Positions 23,124-30,229 of a stretch of 64,000 bases of DNA are shown piece after piece. The notes beneath the pieces are model-generated. The model saw nothing but the letters and a program-made list of their open reading frames with translations. It ran no database searches and had not been told where the DNA came from. This stretch comes from an uncultured Acidobacteriota bacterium (GTDB taxonomy: Bacteria; Acidobacteriota; Blastocatellia; RBC074): contig CAWCKY010000006.1 in the NCBI GenBank assembly GCA_963796275.1, positions 2,304,001-2,368,000 of the forward strand, given 5' to 3'. Position numbers and translations under genes: made by a program. Each line of letters begins with the position of its first letter. The stretch's first letter is position 1.

Positions 23124-23529
23124 GCGACAACCTCCACGAAAGCCCAAATAAACGCCTTTTTTGCGAAGCTCTCTAAATAATTCGAGAGCGTACCGATTCA
23201 GAATTGATTAATTGGATTTTTAAGCTGGTTGATCCGGGAAGATTTAACCAGTAATAAAGTGGAGGCCTTGAGAAAATGGACACCAAAAATATGACTCACT
23301 GCCTTCCGATATGCAACCTCAAATGGATAGCTTTTCAGAGGCGGGAGGGGGGCTAAAAAACCTTCTTAACCGAGATGAGTTTTTCTCATCTAGTCTGAAT
23401 TTATCGAAGACGGACGCAATCACCGTTTCCCACCCACGGGAGGCTACTCGTTTCGCATTCACCCTAAATTCGCTTAAAATCGTATCACGCTTGCAACCGC
23501 GGTGGCTCGCGATGCCGCGAGGGGGCTTC

Positions 23530-24630
23530 ATGACGCGAAAAGAGATCGAACTCGAAGATTACCTTGAGACGCCTCTTCGAAAGATCGTGCACATCGATAT
23601 GGACGCATTCTACGCTTCCGTCGAGCAGCGCGACGATGCGAGTTTGCGCGACAAGCCTGTCATAGTCGCCTGGCGCGGAAATCGTTCTGTAGTATGCGCC
23701 GCCTCATACGAGGCCCGGCGGTTTGGCGTTCGCTCCGCCATGCCCGTGATTCGCGCGGAGCGCCTCTGTCCCGGCGCGATCTTTATTCCACCCGACTTCA
23801 CCAGATACAAAGCCGCCTCGCGCGCTGTGCGAGATATCCTTTCGCGCCACACTGATATTATCGAGCCGCTTTCGCTCGACGAGGCATACCTGGATGTAAC
23901 AGAGAACAAGTCAGGTTTGCCCACGGCCACTCGCGTGGCGCGCATGATTCGGCGCCAGATTCGAGATGAACTAAACCTCACCGCTTCCGCCGGAGTCGCG
24001 CCGAACAAGTTCCTAGCCAAGATCGCTTCTGACTGGCGCAAACCGGACGGGCTCTTCGTGATTCAGCCGGATGAAGTGATCGCCTTTCTCATGCCGCTCG
24101 CCGTCAGCCGGATTCCCGGTGTGGGTAAAGTCACGGAAATCCGATTGAAGGAACTGGGCGTCGCAACTGTCGTAGACCTCCGTGATCTCGGGCTGGAAGC
24201 GCTTGAAAGCAAGTTCGGTCGGTACGGGCGCCGTCTCTATGAACTGGCGAACGGCATTGATCACAATCCGGTTGTGTCCGACAGGCCGACGAAGTCGATC
24301 TCCGCTGAAGATACCTTCGAACGCGACCTGCCGCTTTGCGAGACAGAGGATCCGATTAGACGACTCGCTGAGAAAGTATGGGCGGCTGCTCGGAAAGACG
24401 CCCGTATCCCGCGAACTGTCGTACTTAAATTGAAGACGAGCGACTTCAATATTATGACACGCAGCCATACACCGCCGAGCCCTCCAGTTAGTTGTGAGGA
24501 GTTCACGGCCATTGCGCTCTCGTTGCGAGAACGCGTCGAATCATCCCCTGATCAGCGATTCCGCCTGGTGGGTGTGGGATTGAGCAACTTCATAGTCCCC
24601 GAACAGCCACAACCGACGCTCTTCGATTAG
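23530..24630 (+). CDS. dinB: DNA polymerase IV
   Basis: RKIVHIDMDAFYASVEQ, ASYEARRFGVRSAM, EPLSLDEAYLD, KIASDWRKPDG, C-terminal clamp-binding-like QPTLFD. Confidence 0.96.
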   Translation: MTRKEIELEDYLETPLRKIVHIDMDAFYASVEQRDDASLRDKPVIVAWRGNRSVVCAASYEARRFGVRSAMPVIRAERLCPGAIFIPPDFTRYKAASRAVRDILSRHTDIIEPLSLDEAYLDVTENKSGLPTATRVARMIRRQIRDELNLTASAGVAPNKFLAKIASDWRKPDGLFVIQPDEVIAFLMPLAVSRIPGVGKVTEIRLKELGVATVVDLRDLGLEALESKFGRYGRRLYELANGIDHNPVVSDRPTKSISAEDTFERDLPLCETEDPIRRLAEKVWAAARKDARIPRTVVLKLKTSDFNIMTRSHTPPSPPVSCEEFTAIALSLRERVESSPDQRFRLVGVGLSNFIVPEQPQPTLFD

Positions 24631-24755
24631 CTATCAAGCTAGGAGATTTTTCTCTGCGCGCTTTGATTTTTTTATGACGGGCACGAAGCACACGATGCGT
24701 TTCGACAACACCGCTTTTGAGAAACTCCGGATCGGCTATTGCTAAAACCGTATTG

Positions 24756-26252
24756 CTAAAACGTGATGCTATAACTGAAACCGGGTTTATTTGCGAAGGC
24801 CAGCACGAACGAGAAGTTGTGCCTCCCGTGCGCATAGTTCACCATAGGATGCACTCGAACGCCGTCATAAATGACCAGCGATGATATCTTCTTGGTAAAG
24901 TACACATTCAGCCCGGCCACTGGCCGCCAGTTGTGCTCATACGTTCCGTAAGCCACGCCAGCATACGGAGCGATGGGCAGCCCTGTTTCACGCTTCAGGT
25001 TTTTACTGAAGGTTGCGTAAAACGACTGACCGTCGGGCGTGCCGATTCGGTCGGAACTCGTGCCGAGAATCAGCGCCGGGCGGCGTTCAGTCTCCGGCAT
25101 AACCAACCAGTTGATCAGCGGACTCACCCTGCCGCTTGCATCCTCAGCGCGTGGATTGAATTCAACCCCCGCAGATAATCTAGGATAAATCCGGTATGTG
25201 AGTGTGGTTCGGACAGTCGCGCGCGGCACGGCTCCCGGAATGACACGCGTCCCGAAAGTCCATTTATCTTCACTTACGTTCACTGCCCCGCTCACGGCGC
25301 GGCCCTCGCCCGGTCAGAGCGGTCAGCTAGGTACGCTGGAAACCTCGAGTGTCGATTTACTTTTGGCCATGGCTATCTGTTCGCGTTTTGCTTCGCGCTC
25401 GCCTTGCGCCACCAGCTTTTCGAGGTGCTTTTTGATCTCTTCCTGCGTCACGACGCTTCTATATATCGCCACTATCTTTCCATCGCGCCCGATGATGGCT
25501 GTGCCGGGCAGCCCGGGTCCGAGGCCGAACTGAGCCATCTGTTCCGTAGTTGCGCCCATCCAGACCGGGAAGTTGACGATTGTCTCCTTGATGAATTGTC
25601 GCACTGCCTTCAGTTCGGCGAATGTGTCAGCCGAAGCGCCGATGACCTGCACTCCGTAAGCAGCGTAACTGTTCTGGATAGCCGCCAGATCGGGCATCTC
25701 CTTCTTGCACGGTCCGCACCACGTCGCCCAGAAGTTCAGCACGACGATCCGCCCGCGGTATGAGCTCAATTTCTGATCCACCCCGAACAGGTCTTTCAAC
25801 ACCAGTTCGGTCTCTTTCCCTATGACGTCAGGAGAAGCCGGTTCTGAAGGCTTGGATAGAACTTTAAGATCGTCCACTTTGACAAAGTTTTGTTTCTTAC
25901 TGACGCGAACCGGGCCGGTGATTTCCACGCGGCTGCCGACATAACTCAGCCAGTTCGGCTCCGGACGTTTGAACTTTCCGTCTTCGAGTTGATAGAACTT
26001 CGTGGCGCCGTCCTGTGCCGCTACCGCCAAAAGTGTCGGGTCGCCATTGGCGATGCACTTGGCGGCTTGCGTCAGGTCTTCTTGCGAGCCGTACGGGACT
26101 TTCCGGCGGTCGGCCTTATTCCAGCAATCTAAACAACACACGATCTGACCTTCGATAAAGCCACTCGCCTTTGCCGCTTGCGCCGAGGCAGGCTGAAAGA
26201 AAAGCGACGATGTCAAAATAGATAACAAGAGTGACAATATTATTCGATTCAC
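24756..26252 (-). CDS. Candidate selenoprotein: signal peptide + Cys-rich N-domain + TlpA thioredoxin (WCGPC) + UPLU (two in-frame UGA) + putative outer-membrane beta-barrel; standard callers split it into 25323-26294 and 24756-25295
   Basis: Both ORFs share one frame. The junction reads ...VSSVPS-TGA(25325-23)-P-L-TGA(25316-14)-PGEGRAVSGAV... with a GC-rich hairpin right after. The TlpA domain (NFWATWCGPCKKEMP) is certain; readthrough is inferred. Confidence 0.7.
25288..25322 (-). promoter_or_regulatory. Candidate bacterial SECIS stem-loop
   Basis: mRNA CCGCUC-UGA-CCGGGCGAGGGCCGCGCCGU-GAGCGG: CCGCUC pairs with GAGCGG around an inner GC stem, directly 3' of the first UGA. Confidence 0.55.
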
Positions 26253-26355
26253 GGTGGATTCTCCCCGCTGATGCAGAAGCGGACACGCGGACATCAGCCG
26301 ATAGCGTGATGATTGGGGCGATGAATTTGTGTGTGCGTGAGTGAGGGTGTGGCGA

Positions 26356-26715
26356 TTAAATGCGCAGCACGGATACTCTTGGCAGAGGTGGCGAACTTGC
26401 AGGCTGTGGCGGCCCGGCAGTCAGGTTCAAAGTTTGGAAATGATAAAAATCGAAAATCTCCGAGAGCAGCAAGGGCCGGGTGAGGTGGCCCGCCGGTGTT
26501 TTCTGAATTTTCTCCGGCGGTAGATATCTGAGTGTGTCGAGTGAACAACACACGTCTTCCGGCTCGCTCGACGAAACGCTGGGTGCGTCAGAAGCGCAAA
26601 ATGATTCCCCCACATGGTCTGCGCAGTTAGCAATGCAGCCTAGAGACAAGCAGAGCACATTGAGCGCTAGCGCGAAAGAGAGGAATCTTTTTGTAATGTT
26701 ACTCCGACATTTCAT
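26356..26715 (-). CDS. Small Cys/His-rich exported protein (DUF2946-like metal-locus leader)
   Basis: Signal-like N-terminus, [12 protein letters not shown], Pro-rich tail ending [11 protein letters not shown]; same strand as and just upstream of the TlpA gene. Confidence 0.6.
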
Positions 26716-26843
26716 CGGCGGAATTATAACGAATGTTTCGTCGGCTGCCAAACGCGCATATCTGATGGTGTCCCAGACGATCGGAAGACGATGCTGCTGC
26801 CATGTTGTGTGTTAACCTGGCAGCGACCGGCCCACACACGATC

Positions 26844-27830: not shown

Positions 27831-29222
27831 ATGACAATTACAGCGCCCGATCATTCCGAGAATCAACTCATCCGCGCCTTGCTGGAAGCCCGCGCGCGTA
27901 CGCTCGAATTAGTCTCTGACCTGAGCGACGAACAGATGATCGGACCGCGCCTCGCCATCGTCAATCCCTTGCGCTGGGAGATCGCGCACGTGGGATGGTT
28001 CCAGGAATATTGGATATTACGCCATCTTCGCCAACTCGAACCGGTTTGGAATGTGGCGGATCAGATGTATGACTCGGCACGCATCGCGCACGATACGCGC
28101 TGGGACCTCTCATTGCCCTCGAAGGCTGAAACAATCGGTTATACGCAGCGGATCCTCGATCGCGTGGTCGAGCAAACGGCATCTAATCCCTCTCGCGATG
28201 TGAACGTATATAATGACGCATACTTTCTACAACTCGCGCTTTTTCACGAAGACATGCACGCTGAGGCGATCATTTATACGAGACAGACGCTTGGCTATAC
28301 TGAGCCTCGCCTGACCCCGGCTCGGGACGTACCACCGGGAGCGCAAGTTGAGGGAGAGCGTGGAAAGATGGAAGCCGCTACATCAACCGCCACTTTATTG
28401 AAGGGGTTGGGAGACGCTGAAGTACCCGGAGGAACATTCCTGCTCGGCAGCGCGCCGGACGACGGTTTTGTGTTTGACAATGAAATGTGGGCGCATCCGG
28501 TCGAGGTGAAGCCGTTTGCGATCTCAAGGACCGCGGTGACGAACGCAGAATTCGCGGCTTTCGTGGCCGACGGCGGCTATCTGAATCGCGTGTTTTGGGA
28601 TGTGGAAGGATGGCGATGGCGCGAGAGCTCCGAGGCCGAACGCCCGATTTATTGGCAACCGATTTCTGGCGGCCGATGGCTGCGCCGGAACTTCGACCAA
28701 TGGGTCGCACTCGAAAACGACCTCCCCGTGTTGCACGTCAATTGGTATGAGGCTTCGGCCTACTGCCGCTGGGCCGGACGTCGCCTGCCGACGGAGCCCG
28801 AATGGGAGATGGCCGCCAGTTCCGAGCCGGCGCCGGGTGGGCAGGGAATTGCCGATCGCAAAAGGCGCTACCCCTGGGGCGACTCGCCACCCACGCCTGT
28901 GCGCGCAAATCTGGACTGGCGCAATATGGGTTGTCTAGTTGCGCATGCCTTGCCAGCGAGCGAAAGCGCTTTCGGCTGCCGCCAGATGATAGGTAATACC
29001 TGGGAGTGGACCGCCACCGCTTTTGAACCTTTTCCCGGCTTCGCCGCCGGCCCCTACAAGGAATATTCCGCGCCATGGTTCGGGGATCATAAAGTATTGC
29101 GCGGAGGATGCTGGGCCACTCGTTCGCGCCTGATTCGCAATAACTATCGTAACTTCTACAAGCCGGACCGTCGCGACGTGTGGGCCGGGTTCCGCACTTG
29201 CGCGCTTTCAGACGAACGATGA
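27831..29222 (+). CDS. senA: Selenoneine synthase SenA-like (EgtB-related DinB_2 + FGE-sulfatase) protein
   Basis: IVNPLRWEIAHVGWFQEYW signature, HEDMH iron-binding motif, FVFDNE, RLPTEPEWE, GNTWEWT, YKEYSAPWF, VLRGGCW, YRNFY; translationally coupled to a senB-like gene. Confidence 0.85.
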   Translation: MTITAPDHSENQLIRALLEARARTLELVSDLSDEQMIGPRLAIVNPLRWEIAHVGWFQEYWILRHLRQLEPVWNVADQMYDSARIAHDTRWDLSLPSKAETIGYTQRILDRVVEQTASNPSRDVNVYNDAYFLQLALFHEDMHAEAIIYTRQTLGYTEPRLTPARDVPPGAQVEGERGKMEAATSTATLLKGLGDAEVPGGTFLLGSAPDDGFVFDNEMWAHPVEVKPFAISRTAVTNAEFAAFVADGGYLNRVFWDVEGWRWRESSEAERPIYWQPISGGRWLRRNFDQWVALENDLPVLHVNWYEASAYCRWAGRRLPTEPEWEMAASSEPAPGGQGIADRKRRYPWGDSPPTPVRANLDWRNMGCLVAHALPASESAFGCRQMIGNTWEWTATAFEPFPGFAAGPYKEYSAPWFGDHKVLRGGCWATRSRLIRNNYRNFYKPDRRDVWAGFRTCALSDER

Positions 29223-30229
29223 ATATCCTCATCACCACCCCGGCGCCGCCTCGATCCAGATACGGCAACCGTGTAACGGCGCTGCGATGGGCGCGCATCC
29301 TCAAGGGACTTGGACACCATGTCGCCGTCTCCCAGGTCTACGAAGATGGCGATTACGATCTGCTCATCGCGCTACATGCGCGCCACGGCTATTTTTCGAT
29401 CGACCGATTCCGCAGCCTGCATCCGGACAAACCGCTTGTCGTCACGCTCTCCGGGACAGACCTCTACCAGGACCTCAAGCAGAGCAAGCTTGCGCGCAAA
29501 TCGCTTGACCTTGCCACGCGCATTGTCGTGCTTCAACCGAAGGCTTTTGACGATTTGCCGTCGCGACATCACGCGAAAACGCGGGTCATCTATCAGTCGG
29601 CTCGGGGGGGTCGAGCGGTTCAGCCAGCTATATCGGACAACAACCGGCATCCAGGCAATCGGGCCGGGTCACGCAATTTCAATGTTTGCGTGATCGGCCA
29701 CCTGCGACCGGTGAAAGACCCGTTTCGGGCTGCGCTGGCGGCGCGTCGACTGCCGTCTTCATCAAGAATTCGCGTGTTACACATTGGCGGGGCGATGACC
29801 GAGGAGATGGCGGCGAAAGCGCGCGCGGAGATGAAGGTCAACCCACGTTACCTGTGGCTTGGTGAACAACCGCGATGGCGCGCACGCCGCATCCTGACGC
29901 GCAGCCATTTGTGCGTTCTCTCGTCTCGGCTGGAAGGCGGCGCCAATGTGCTCTCGGAATCGATAGTAGCTTCGGTGCCCGTGGTCGCAACGCAAATTCC
30001 CGGCACTGTCGGGATATTAGGCGCGGACTACCCTGGCTATTTCACCGTAGGCGATACCCGTGAATTGAGGGGGCTTTTGCTGCGCGCGGAGGCAGAACCG
30101 GATTTTTTAAATGTTCTCAAGTCAAAGTGCGAGGATTGTGCCGAACTTTTCGAGCCGGCTCGTGAACAGAGGACCTGGAAGAATTTGCTCGCCGAACTAA
30201 GAGTAAGGAATTCGTCAACCAAGCTTTAG
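29219..30229 (+). CDS. senB: Selenosugar synthase SenB-like glycosyltransferase
   Basis: ITTPAPPRSRYGNRVTALRWARIL, IALHARH, SGTDLY, GHLRPVKDP, SRLEGGANV, GILGADYPGYF; ATGA overlap with the senA stop. Confidence 0.88.
   Translation: MNILITTPAPPRSRYGNRVTALRWARILKGLGHHVAVSQVYEDGDYDLLIALHARHGYFSIDRFRSLHPDKPLVVTLSGTDLYQDLKQSKLARKSLDLATRIVVLQPKAFDDLPSRHHAKTRVIYQSARGGRAVQPAISDNNRHPGNRAGSRNFNVCVIGHLRPVKDPFRAALAARRLPSSSRIRVLHIGGAMTEEMAAKARAEMKVNPRYLWLGEQPRWRARRILTRSHLCVLSSRLEGGANVLSESIVASVPVVATQIPGTVGILGADYPGYFTVGDTRELRGLLLRAEAEPDFLNVLKSKCEDCAELFEPAREQRTWKNLLAELRVRNSSTKL

Follow-up and report, generated by a model that had tools for sequence, protein, structure and literature searches.

The 64,000-nucleotide (nt) stretch of DNA analysed here (the window; contig CAWCKY010000006.1 of assembly GCA_963796275.1, positions 2,304,001 to 2,368,000) comes from an uncultured Acidobacteriota bacterium. 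On its minus strand, at 24756..26294, it carries a gene that is proposed to encode a selenoprotein with two selenocysteine (Sec) residues, arranged as Sec-x-x-Sec (UxxU) between a TlpA-like thioredoxin domain and an outer-membrane beta-barrel. The gene appears as two open reading frames (ORFs), A and B, which share a single frame throughout: ORF A ends ...SSVPS-TGA-CCG-CTC-TGA, six codons for PGEGRA follow, and then comes the GTG with which ORF B opens. Features are given in coordinates of the whole 64-kb stretch and residue numbers are counted from the ATG at 26294. The signal peptide was assigned by inspecting the translation, with equivalent N-termini in 13 relatives.

24756..26294, minus strand: whole proposed selenoprotein gene, 512 codons from the ATG at 26294, with two in-frame TGA codons and the stop TAG at 24756-24758
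25323..26294 (including its TGA), minus strand: ORF A, 323 amino acids (aa), C-terminal end ...LEVSSVPS
24756..25295, minus strand: ORF B, 179 aa, opening at GTG 25293-25295 and ending ...GFSYSITF followed by TAG
26178..26294, minus strand: signal peptide, residues 1-39, with hydrophobic core IILSLLLSILTSSLFF and a cleavage-like site after A-S-A and before Q
25845..26162, minus strand: N-terminal 4-Cys domain, residues 45-150, with C53/C54, C57 and C80 and the motif GQ-V-CC-x-x-C-W-x-x-ADR
25410..25814, minus strand: TlpA/ResA-like thioredoxin-fold domain, residues 161-295, with W-C-G-P-C at residues 192-196 (25707-25721)
25347..25445, minus strand: long helix and charged linker, residues 284-316, from the secondary structure predicted by AlphaFold2 (AF2)
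25323-25325, minus strand: first UGA, read as Sec324; TGA in 115 of 116 loci and TGC in one, Cys in homologues
25314-25316, minus strand: second UGA, read as Sec327; TGA in 116 of 116 loci, Cys in the same homologues
25285..25303, minus strand: hairpin resembling a selenocysteine insertion sequence (SECIS), GCCGCGCCGUGAGCGGGGC, of 3 base pairs (bp), a G.G mismatch and 3 bp, with loop CGUGA
24759..25262, minus strand: 12-stranded outer-membrane beta-barrel by predicted structure, residues 345-512, with C-terminal Phe

An alternative start codon, GTG at 26252, lies 14 codons inside the ATG-started frame and leaves 498 codons. It has GGGGAG 8 nt upstream and yields a typical signal peptide (MNRIILSLLL...ASA, then QA), so that the 498-aa form is at least as likely as the 512-aa form. 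An earlier note on this DNA had described two ORFs in one frame with TGA-CCG-CTC-TGA between them and a fused protein of ~498 aa; the arrangement was confirmed, on the minus strand, and the proposed length agrees with the GTG start at 26252, the upper coordinate given in that note.

Conservation of the TGA-x-x-TGA junction

The pattern TGA-x-x-TGA was found in 59 of 2721 frames of at least 250 codons ending in TGA in the genome (9.46 Mb, 94.7% complete, 5.2% contamination). The bare pattern is not proof of read-through, since so many frames carry it, and the case rests on comparison with other genomes. At least 150 open codons follow the pattern in two of the 59 cases, the selenoprotein locus and one on another contig (C1:976916-978538, plus strand). 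In the latter, the gene downstream of a frame that looks phosphorylase-like by its translation alone has a Met and a signal peptide of its own, and the joining is clearly accidental.

A six-frame search of 40 related genomes and the window's own genome matched ORF B in 18 of the 41 (E <= 0.001), with 17 strong matches in 16 genomes. The sequence S-[ST]-V-P-S-TGA-P-[L/V/S]-TGA-P-G-E-G-R-A was in frame in 15/15 loci, one from the own genome and 14 from relatives belonging to several families of the same class; excluding L018, which comes from a genome flagged as unpublished (G004), leaves 14/14. The complete order of signal peptide, N-domain, thioredoxin domain, junction and C-domain was present in 14 of these 15, and the remaining one (L016) is cut by a contig end, leaving the distal thioredoxin domain, the junction and the C-domain visible.

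A pattern-limited scan of GTDB species genomes returned 534 stretches encoding a relative, of which the best 80 were examined. These 80 came from Blastocatellia, Pyrinomonadaceae, Terriglobia/Bryobacterales and Chloracidobacterium, together with a few metagenome-assembled genomes (MAGs) with other labels, and carried TGA..TGA in 79 cases and TGC..TGA in one. The latter (L106, on a contig labelled as an Actinomycetota MAG, junction at ~1971-1982) is the sole mixed form found, Cys-x-x-Sec. Genome G018 was seen to hold two copies of the whole gene (C117:5833-6366, L050, and C114:34407-34940, L059), both with UxxU. The 15 and 80 loci together make up 95 acidobacterial loci, some contigs having been fetched twice, with 87 distinct junction sequences; 21 loci of a marine subfamily, described below, bring the set to 116.

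At the junction, 115 of the 116 loci preserve P-[S/A]-TGA-x-x-TGA-P-G-E-[G/A] in frame, the exception being the one with TGC at the first site, and no TAA, TAG or frame loss was observed at the junction in any of the 116. The flanking residues vary at the codon level: Pro and Gly are each encoded by 4 codons, Val by 4 codons with one ATT, the third position of Glu also varies, and at the Ser/Ala position Ser is encoded by AGY as well as TCN codons. Such synonymous variation is the signature of a translated sequence on both sides of the TGAs and between them. Upstream in the same frame, C-x-P-C was present in 76/76 evaluable loci and the Cys motif of the N-domain in 53/76.

These data bear directly on the alternative that the locus holds two genes, namely a TlpA-like lipoprotein or periplasmic protein ending in a tandem stop and a 179-aa protein started at GTG 25295. 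Gene callers give this split, many database entries begin at [MV]SGA, and TGA-x-x-TGA is frequent enough in the genome for its one other long joined case to be accidental. A GTG with a GAGG/GAAG-like stretch is present in 98 of the 116 loci (here GAGG, 9 nt upstream), so that an independent start of ORF B is possible in principle, a point that counts against a fused product. In the other 18 loci, however, the GTG is replaced by GTC, GTT or ATC, and the 11 codons past the second UGA contain no ATG, GTG or TTG. The six codons from the second UGA to the GTG are conserved as protein and change synonymously, which also argues against two genes, as do the lack of a signal peptide in the ORF B barrel, the position of the marine signal peptide upstream of the UGAs, and the existence of CxxU and CxxC forms alongside the intact frame in all 116 loci. 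Two separate genes are accordingly a very improbable explanation of the locus.

Selenocysteine machinery and the downstream hairpin

A tRNA-Sec was detected in the genome at 62.6 bits, over the Rfam cut-off, and was called by ARAGORN as tRNA-SeC with anticodon TCA, the sole TCA-anticodon tRNA among 47. SelA was matched at 457 bits and the winged-helix domain of SelB at 75 bits. In-frame TGA codons, one each, were found in SelD (C7:302299-303228, plus strand) and in the formate dehydrogenase alpha subunit FdhA (C6:913900-916929, minus strand); in the minimum-energy folds a downstream hairpin follows, with loop GUU and GUC, respectively. The machinery, together with the in-frame TGAs of SelD and FdhA, indicates that the organism makes selenoproteins. 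SelA was over the cut-off in 41/41 genomes searched, with E <= 1e-100 in 37; G012 gave a fragmentary match, and the matches in G004, G008 and G010 (genomes 70-82% complete) were weak. Because it was found in all 41, the co-occurrence of SelA with the gene is uninformative.

Published criteria for a bacterial SECIS (bSECIS; PMC13188914, section 5) comprise an apical loop of 3-9 nt whose first or second nucleotide is G and precedes a G or U, a stem of 4-16 bp, a UGA-to-loop distance of 16-37 nt and a minimum free energy <= -7.5 kcal/mol. The hairpin of the window begins 11 nt past the second UGA, with its loop 17 nt after the second and 26 nt after the first UGA. It has 6 bp, forms its own minimum-energy fold at -10.0 kcal/mol and agrees with all of these criteria for both UGAs. 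The GUG of its loop is the very triplet taken as the GTG start of ORF B, and the conservation of this loop within a covarying hairpin is a further point against a separate ORF B gene.

Comparison across loci indicated that the stem is maintained. Among the 95 acidobacterial loci 98.5% of cells were paired, against 20-66% with slid partners, and one pair changed from C-G to U-A in 13 distinct sequences through a synonymous Gly change combined with an Ala-to-Thr change. In a joint alignment of all 116 loci (98 distinct), 97.8% of cells were paired versus 22-61% in the slid controls, and compensatory changes were observed in 4 of the 6 pairs, with 67 such cells compared to 10.5 +/- 2.8 in shuffles. 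The pair at 36-52 illustrates this (CG 66, UA 13, GC 11, AU 4). In the loop, the U does not vary and the G before it reaches at least 90% conservation. The marine subfamily has a hairpin of the same geometry and position built from other base pairs. Two further candidate structures at the junction, the minimum-energy stem CCGCUC/GAGCGG and an inner GGC-GARG-GCC hairpin, were rejected, as the inter-UGA codons and the third positions vary uncompensated.

Read-through of the UGAs with another residue was also considered, whether by near-cognate decoding (Trp, Cys or Arg), an opal suppressor or an 'allo-tRNA'. It finds some encouragement in a report according to which acidobacterial allo-tRNAs may serve as nonsense suppressors (PMC5389517). 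Against it stand the tRNA-Sec as the only TCA-anticodon tRNA that ARAGORN found in the 9.46-Mb genome, the fit of the hairpin to a bSECIS, and the presence of FdhA and SelD as bona fide selenoprotein genes in the same genome. Both sites moreover align with Cys in homologues, and L106 has Cys at the first site only, which is the usual Sec/Cys pattern. Incorporation of a residue other than Sec thus seems hardly credible, and we consider with high confidence that the sequence evidence points to decoding of both UGAs as Sec.

Several expectations of the earlier note on decoding can be assessed from these results. It had asked whether homologues keep the frame with TGA or Cys at both positions, and they do, as TGA..TGA in 115 of 116 loci, as one CxxU form and as several CxxC families, with a junction free of TAA, TAG and frame loss. 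The genes selA, selB, selC and selD, whose presence it had wanted confirmed, were all found (as SelA, SelB, tRNA-Sec and SelD), and the adjacent 3' hairpin that Sec insertion demands was located 11 nt past the second UGA and covaries. Its view that ORF B would need the upstream signal peptide is borne out by the absence of one in ORF B itself and by the 18 loci lacking a start codon.

Protein architecture, relatives and genomic neighbourhood

The thioredoxin domain, noted earlier for its WCGPC site, was matched over the Pfam cut-offs by AhpC-TSA (77.2 bits, cut-off 26) and Redoxin (76.5 bits, cut-off 26.6). The NCBIfam models for the TlpA equivalog (NF047696) and ResA (NF002854) scored 65.2 bits versus a cut-off of 230 and 100.7 versus 170, respectively, and since both fall under their cut-offs the domain is not an equivalog of either. 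Its active site W-C-G-P-C uses Cys codons, and Sec324 and Sec327 lie outside the domain (161-295). The N-domain gave weak matches to DUF5818 in 4 of 13 members (best E 0.0079). Its possible relationship to TRASH/YHS domains found no support, the likeness being a 7-column match of VCCxxCW to FCCxGCD.

No Pfam or NCBIfam model matched the barrel or the junction, and the Pfam models of KdgM/NanC, Autotransporter and CopB matched neither the window protein nor 57 family members (E <= 1); DUF5777 was matched weakly in 3 of these 57, with a best E of 0.025. Sequence searches of the PDB with profiles of the N-domain and of the barrel returned nothing. The C-domain was also approached through a predicted structure, which the earlier note had suggested as a check on its barrel assignment. 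The AF2 model, built from a 57-sequence alignment, had a predicted local distance difference test (pLDDT) score of 91.3 and a predicted template modelling (pTM) score of 0.84 and contained 12 beta-strands. Foldseek matched it to FapF, NanC and KdgM (E 1e-4 to 8e-3). In VIA-align it superposed on 12-stranded outer-membrane barrels with Z 13-15 and a root-mean-square deviation (rmsd) of ~3 A over 149-169 residues at 5-15% identity, the targets being the COG4313 channel, EstA, NalP, AIDA-I, BrkA, KdgM, FapF, LpxR and NanC. The ESM Atlas returned only clusters from Acidobacteriota and Armatimonadota that were unnamed or called 'TonB-like barrel'. The terminal Phe of the barrel is invariant or nearly so, conserved polar residues were found at R350, E401, K431 and H482, and UxxU lies ~18 residues before barrel strand 1. 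The model thus confidently predicts a 12-stranded outer-membrane barrel.

Relatives with cysteine were obtained by searching the fused sequence, with U entered as C, against 5.8 billion proteins. Uninterrupted C-x-x-C ORFs were found in P0001 (...LVPSCALCP...) and P0002 (VPSCPVCPGEAR; ...TVPSCPVCPGEAR...). When the junction and C-domain were run through HMMER against all 1.84 billion representatives, 238 matches were obtained at E <= 0.001. Some of the relatives consist of a signal peptide, PTCAGCAGEA and the barrel (P0070, P0091 and P0137; P0134 has the same layout with ATCAGCAGEA), and others carry one to three YHS/TRASH domains in front of PTCAGCAGEA and the barrel (P0066, P0087, P0099, P0115 and P0103; Pfam YHS down to E 5e-18). 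Many other database entries open at [MV]SGA or further in and are, as far as their sequences tell, split calls of Sec forms.

The marine subfamily was obtained from a metagenome scan queried with three entries such as P0069 and P0104, which begin [MV]SGR, and comprises 21 loci (L134-L154) on contigs from marine and other metagenomes. All 21 share a signal peptide, ~8 residues, EVP[A/S/R]-TGA-[V/L]-ATG-TGA-PGE[A/G], a ~40-residue linker and the barrel; they are devoid of a thioredoxin domain. Here the export signal lies solely upstream of the UGAs, and therefore read-through is needed for the barrel to arrive in the outer membrane. A different variation was observed in 12 of 80 loci, where a His-rich linker, HxHGGVG[I/M/L]EGAS, takes the place of the helix and charged linker and stands directly before UxxU (at least 4 His in the last 35 residues; L071, L072, L074, L075, L077, L080, L081, L084, L085, L097, L099 and L114); several of these proteins are without the 4-Cys N-domain.

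The order of parts, with signal peptide, N-terminal passenger, linker and C-terminal 12-stranded barrel, resembles that of an autotransporter. In such an arrangement the N-domain and the TlpA-like domain would be a passenger exported via the barrel, and UxxU would sit in the pore or at its outer mouth, for example reducing or binding extracellular substrates. The structural scores of autotransporter barrels (EstA Z 15.0, NalP 14.5, AIDA-I 14.1, BrkA 13.1, Hbp 12.4) are compatible with it, and the structural alignments extend to model residue 4-6, which is the UxxU segment. However, KdgM/NanC porins, the COG4313 channel and FapF, which has a periplasmic N-domain, score equally, the barrel, at ~170 residues, is much shorter than the autotransporter targets (245-303), and the Pfam Autotransporter model gave no match. 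Relatives in which the motif is preceded by only ~8-10 residues carry no passenger. To our knowledge, a thioredoxin domain at the cell surface would also be without a reductant, reductases of the TlpA/ResA type being periplasmic. We regard export of the N-terminal part through the barrel as improbable.

The surroundings of the gene were inspected for further features. A promoter-like site was recorded by consensus scan only:

26723..26751, minus strand: promoter-like site TTGGCA-17-TATAAT (11/12)

It is the sole match in 24400-26800, and 1 was found where shuffles give 1.0. A Cys-rich ORF of 131 aa with no Pfam match lies upstream of the gene (26356..26751, minus strand), and its TTG start overlaps this site; either this reading frame is spurious and a long leader precedes the coding part of the selenoprotein mRNA, or the promoter match arose by chance. 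Between ORF A and ORF B the consensus scan gave no promoter-like site, and no terminator was found there. An Rfam scan of 24400-26800 found nothing relevant.

On the other strand, a DNA polymerase IV (IMS family) gene at 23311..24630 (plus strand) converges on the selenoprotein gene. An ORF that looks similar by translation alone adjoins the marine-subfamily gene in four closely related contigs (L143-L145 and L154), and the adjacency is probably a coincidence to judge from these sequences. Two genes for selenoneine biosynthesis, at 27831..29222 and 29180..30229 (both plus strand), are separated by ~1.5 kb from the selenoprotein gene, which is on the opposite strand. Their products matched SenA (NF041186) at 497.7 bits versus a cut-off of 420 and SenB (TIGR04348) at 387.6 bits versus a cut-off of 300, which by sequence shows a predicted second selenium pathway in the same organism. 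This adjacency was absent from the 14 related loci examined and may be coincidental.

Proposed function and comparison with known systems

Taken together, the comparisons make it very likely that 24756..26294 (minus strand) encodes one secreted double-Sec protein of ~500 residues with UxxU between the TlpA-like domain and the barrel. SelB and tRNA-Sec would decode both UGAs under the direction of the single hairpin 11 nt past the second one. Outer-membrane barrels with an even number of strands have both termini in the periplasm, and therefore UxxU would be placed within the lumen or at the mouth facing the periplasm. In the mechanism that we propose, the barrel would sit in the outer membrane with its termini in the periplasm and with UxxU at or in the periplasmic mouth, serving as passage or anchorage. 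UxxU may form a soft high-affinity site, in which two selenolates bind a thiophilic metal such as Cu(I), or may act as a diselenide/selenol couple. UxxU would be kept reduced by the TlpA-like domain tethered to it, which would itself presumably draw on the usual periplasmic reductant pathway. UxxU/CxxC and the barrel would then form the conserved core, and TlpA-like domains, YHS/TRASH domains and His-rich linkers would be interchangeable feeder modules.

A role as a metal site is favoured because the motif and the barrel occur alone, behind a TlpA-like domain, behind YHS/TRASH domains and beside His-rich linkers. We therefore put forward tentatively, as a proposal whose chances we place somewhat under even, that at the barrel the selenolate/thiolate pair serves to bind a thiophilic metal, with the thioredoxin domain keeping the pair reduced. 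Another possibility, to which we assign a somewhat smaller share, is that UxxU is purely a redox centre (diselenide/selenol), acting as acceptor or donor of the TlpA-like domain for an envelope or outer-membrane substrate, or as a redox-gated plug of the barrel. The UxxU/CxxC spacing is that of redox motifs, the motif is tethered to a thiol-disulfide reductase domain in 76/76 evaluable acidobacterial loci, and most selenoproteins are redox proteins (PMC13188914). Yet the motif also occurs where no thioredoxin domain is present (the marine subfamily, P0070 and others), and its fusion to YHS/TRASH domains or position beside His-rich linkers points to metal handling. Metal and redox roles are not mutually exclusive. 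A bolder version, which we consider doubtful, sees the core of P-[S/T/A]-Sec-x-x-Sec-P-G-E-G and barrel, with the conserved polar residues of the latter, as an outer-membrane device of a new kind: the selenolate pair would sit in or thread the barrel lumen and pass electrons or a thiophilic metal across the membrane, with one SECIS serving two UGAs and with interchangeable periplasmic feeders (TlpA in Acidobacteriota, YHS/TRASH in Cys forms, none in marine forms).

Several results weigh against the interpretation of the gene or of its function. For the hairpin, the junction region of 111 nt, taken as one piece, shows no unusual stability (z = 0.52; 137/200 shuffles fold at least as well), and RNAalifold on the first 15 sequences gave a weak consensus of -7.6 kcal/mol. 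The spacing of the first UGA, while inside the consensus range, falls outside the strict geometry of E. coli fdhF. Four of the 95 acidobacterial loci (L024, L025, L026 and L081) have no consensus hairpin; they carry instead a hairpin of 7-8 bp with a GGG or GUG loop ~4 nt further 3', and the peptide shifts from VSGA to [IV]RG[IT], a different solution to the same requirement that supports a structural constraint. For the protein, the junction was modelled at pLDDT ~50 and its placement relative to the barrel is not fixed, and the N-domain gave an hhalign probability of 1.6% with the YHS-bearing Cys forms. No neighbouring gene was conserved across the 14 acidobacterial or the 21 marine loci, so the neighbourhood offers no functional hint, and the metal assignment is inferred from domain associations only.

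The protein is very probably a genuine, widespread and so far uncatalogued double-Sec envelope protein that gene callers mis-split. No family match was found among Pfam and NCBIfam models for the barrel or junction, nor among the 119 families of Table 1 of a 2026 selenoprotein catalogue (PMC13188914), consistent with the earlier note, whose author did not recognise a described family in it. A literature search that included PMC9312934, PMC12013277 and PMC5389517 gave no description of the family within its scope, outside which lie the supplementary tables that could list it.

If correct, this assignment extends the known selenoproteins by a family frequent in a dominant soil phylum: among the 534 GTDB relatives, each of the best 80 carries Sec. 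A second subfamily occurs in marine metagenomes. Gene callers and family libraries currently label the first half of such genes "TlpA family protein" and the second "hypothetical protein"; a new model for annotation pipelines and a defined junction peptide for metaproteomics could be derived from them. The Sec pair lies outside the thioredoxin active site, in the tail of a small barrel, where selenium chemistry has hardly been considered. The locus would also be a natural test case for one bacterial SECIS serving two UGAs 9 nt apart, and it suggests a connection, open to experimental test, between how much selenium is available to soil bacteria and how their envelope deals with metals or redox chemistry.

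Among catalogued selenoproteins, UxxU occurs in three of the 119 families of Table 1 (Prx-like, NF041115 and FmdB-family), and the outer-membrane selenoproteins listed there are the GSU2204/MtrB-PioB family and a TonB-dependent receptor (PMC13188914). The Prx-like PF00578 selenoproteins of UxxC/UxxU type share the AhpC-TSA/Redoxin fold, two Sec residues in UxxU and bacterial UGA/SECIS decoding with the protein described here. In those proteins, however, Sec forms the thioredoxin active site, whereas here that site is Cys-Gly-Pro-Cys (193-196) and UxxU follows ~130 residues on, directly before the barrel. The UGC-containing TlpA/ResA-like proteins with WAxxUGC (cd02966; NF041054) resemble it in the TlpA/ResA-like domain and envelope location; NF041054 scored 44.8 bits versus a cut-off of 300 and covered the thioredoxin domain only, and its proteins have a single active-site Sec and no barrel.

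NF041115, the 'putative mercuric reductase', and the FmdB-family UxxU proteins are alike in having two Sec residues that replace a CxxC thought to bind metal. Neither NF041115 nor TIGR02605 was among the 21 families matched in the NCBIfam scan at E <= 1, and those proteins differ in fold and have no barrel. They are also not known to be secreted. Selenoproteins of the MtrB-PioB type (NF041027) and the TonB-dependent receptor of FCYXU type (NF049945) share the occurrence of Sec in an outer-membrane barrel protein. Both models were likewise absent from the 21 matched families and have one Sec each, and the Sec pair found here is in the N-terminal tail of a 12-strand barrel and not in the barrel. 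MtrB-PioB and TonB-dependent receptor barrels are much larger.

The predicted fold and C-terminal Phe are shared with KdgM/NanC, COG4313, FapF, autotransporter translocators and LpxR, although no Pfam or NCBIfam match and no solved sequence relative links them. We know of no 12-stranded barrel of these kinds with a CxxC or UxxU tail. On the reductase side, Bradyrhizobium TlpA and reductases of the ResA/CcmG type have a thioredoxin fold with C-x-P-C. TlpA acts as the reductant of the Sco and CoxB cysteines that bind copper, so a metal-binding CxxC served by a reductase has a precedent. In contrast to TlpA and ResA, the presumed substrate motif is here fused in cis and contains Sec. A further parallel is offered by the copper-export barrel PcoB/CopB (7pge), a small outer-membrane barrel that aligned with a Z of only 7.7 and rmsd 5.0 without sequence similarity, and whose barrel is preceded by a flexible metal-binding N-terminal region.

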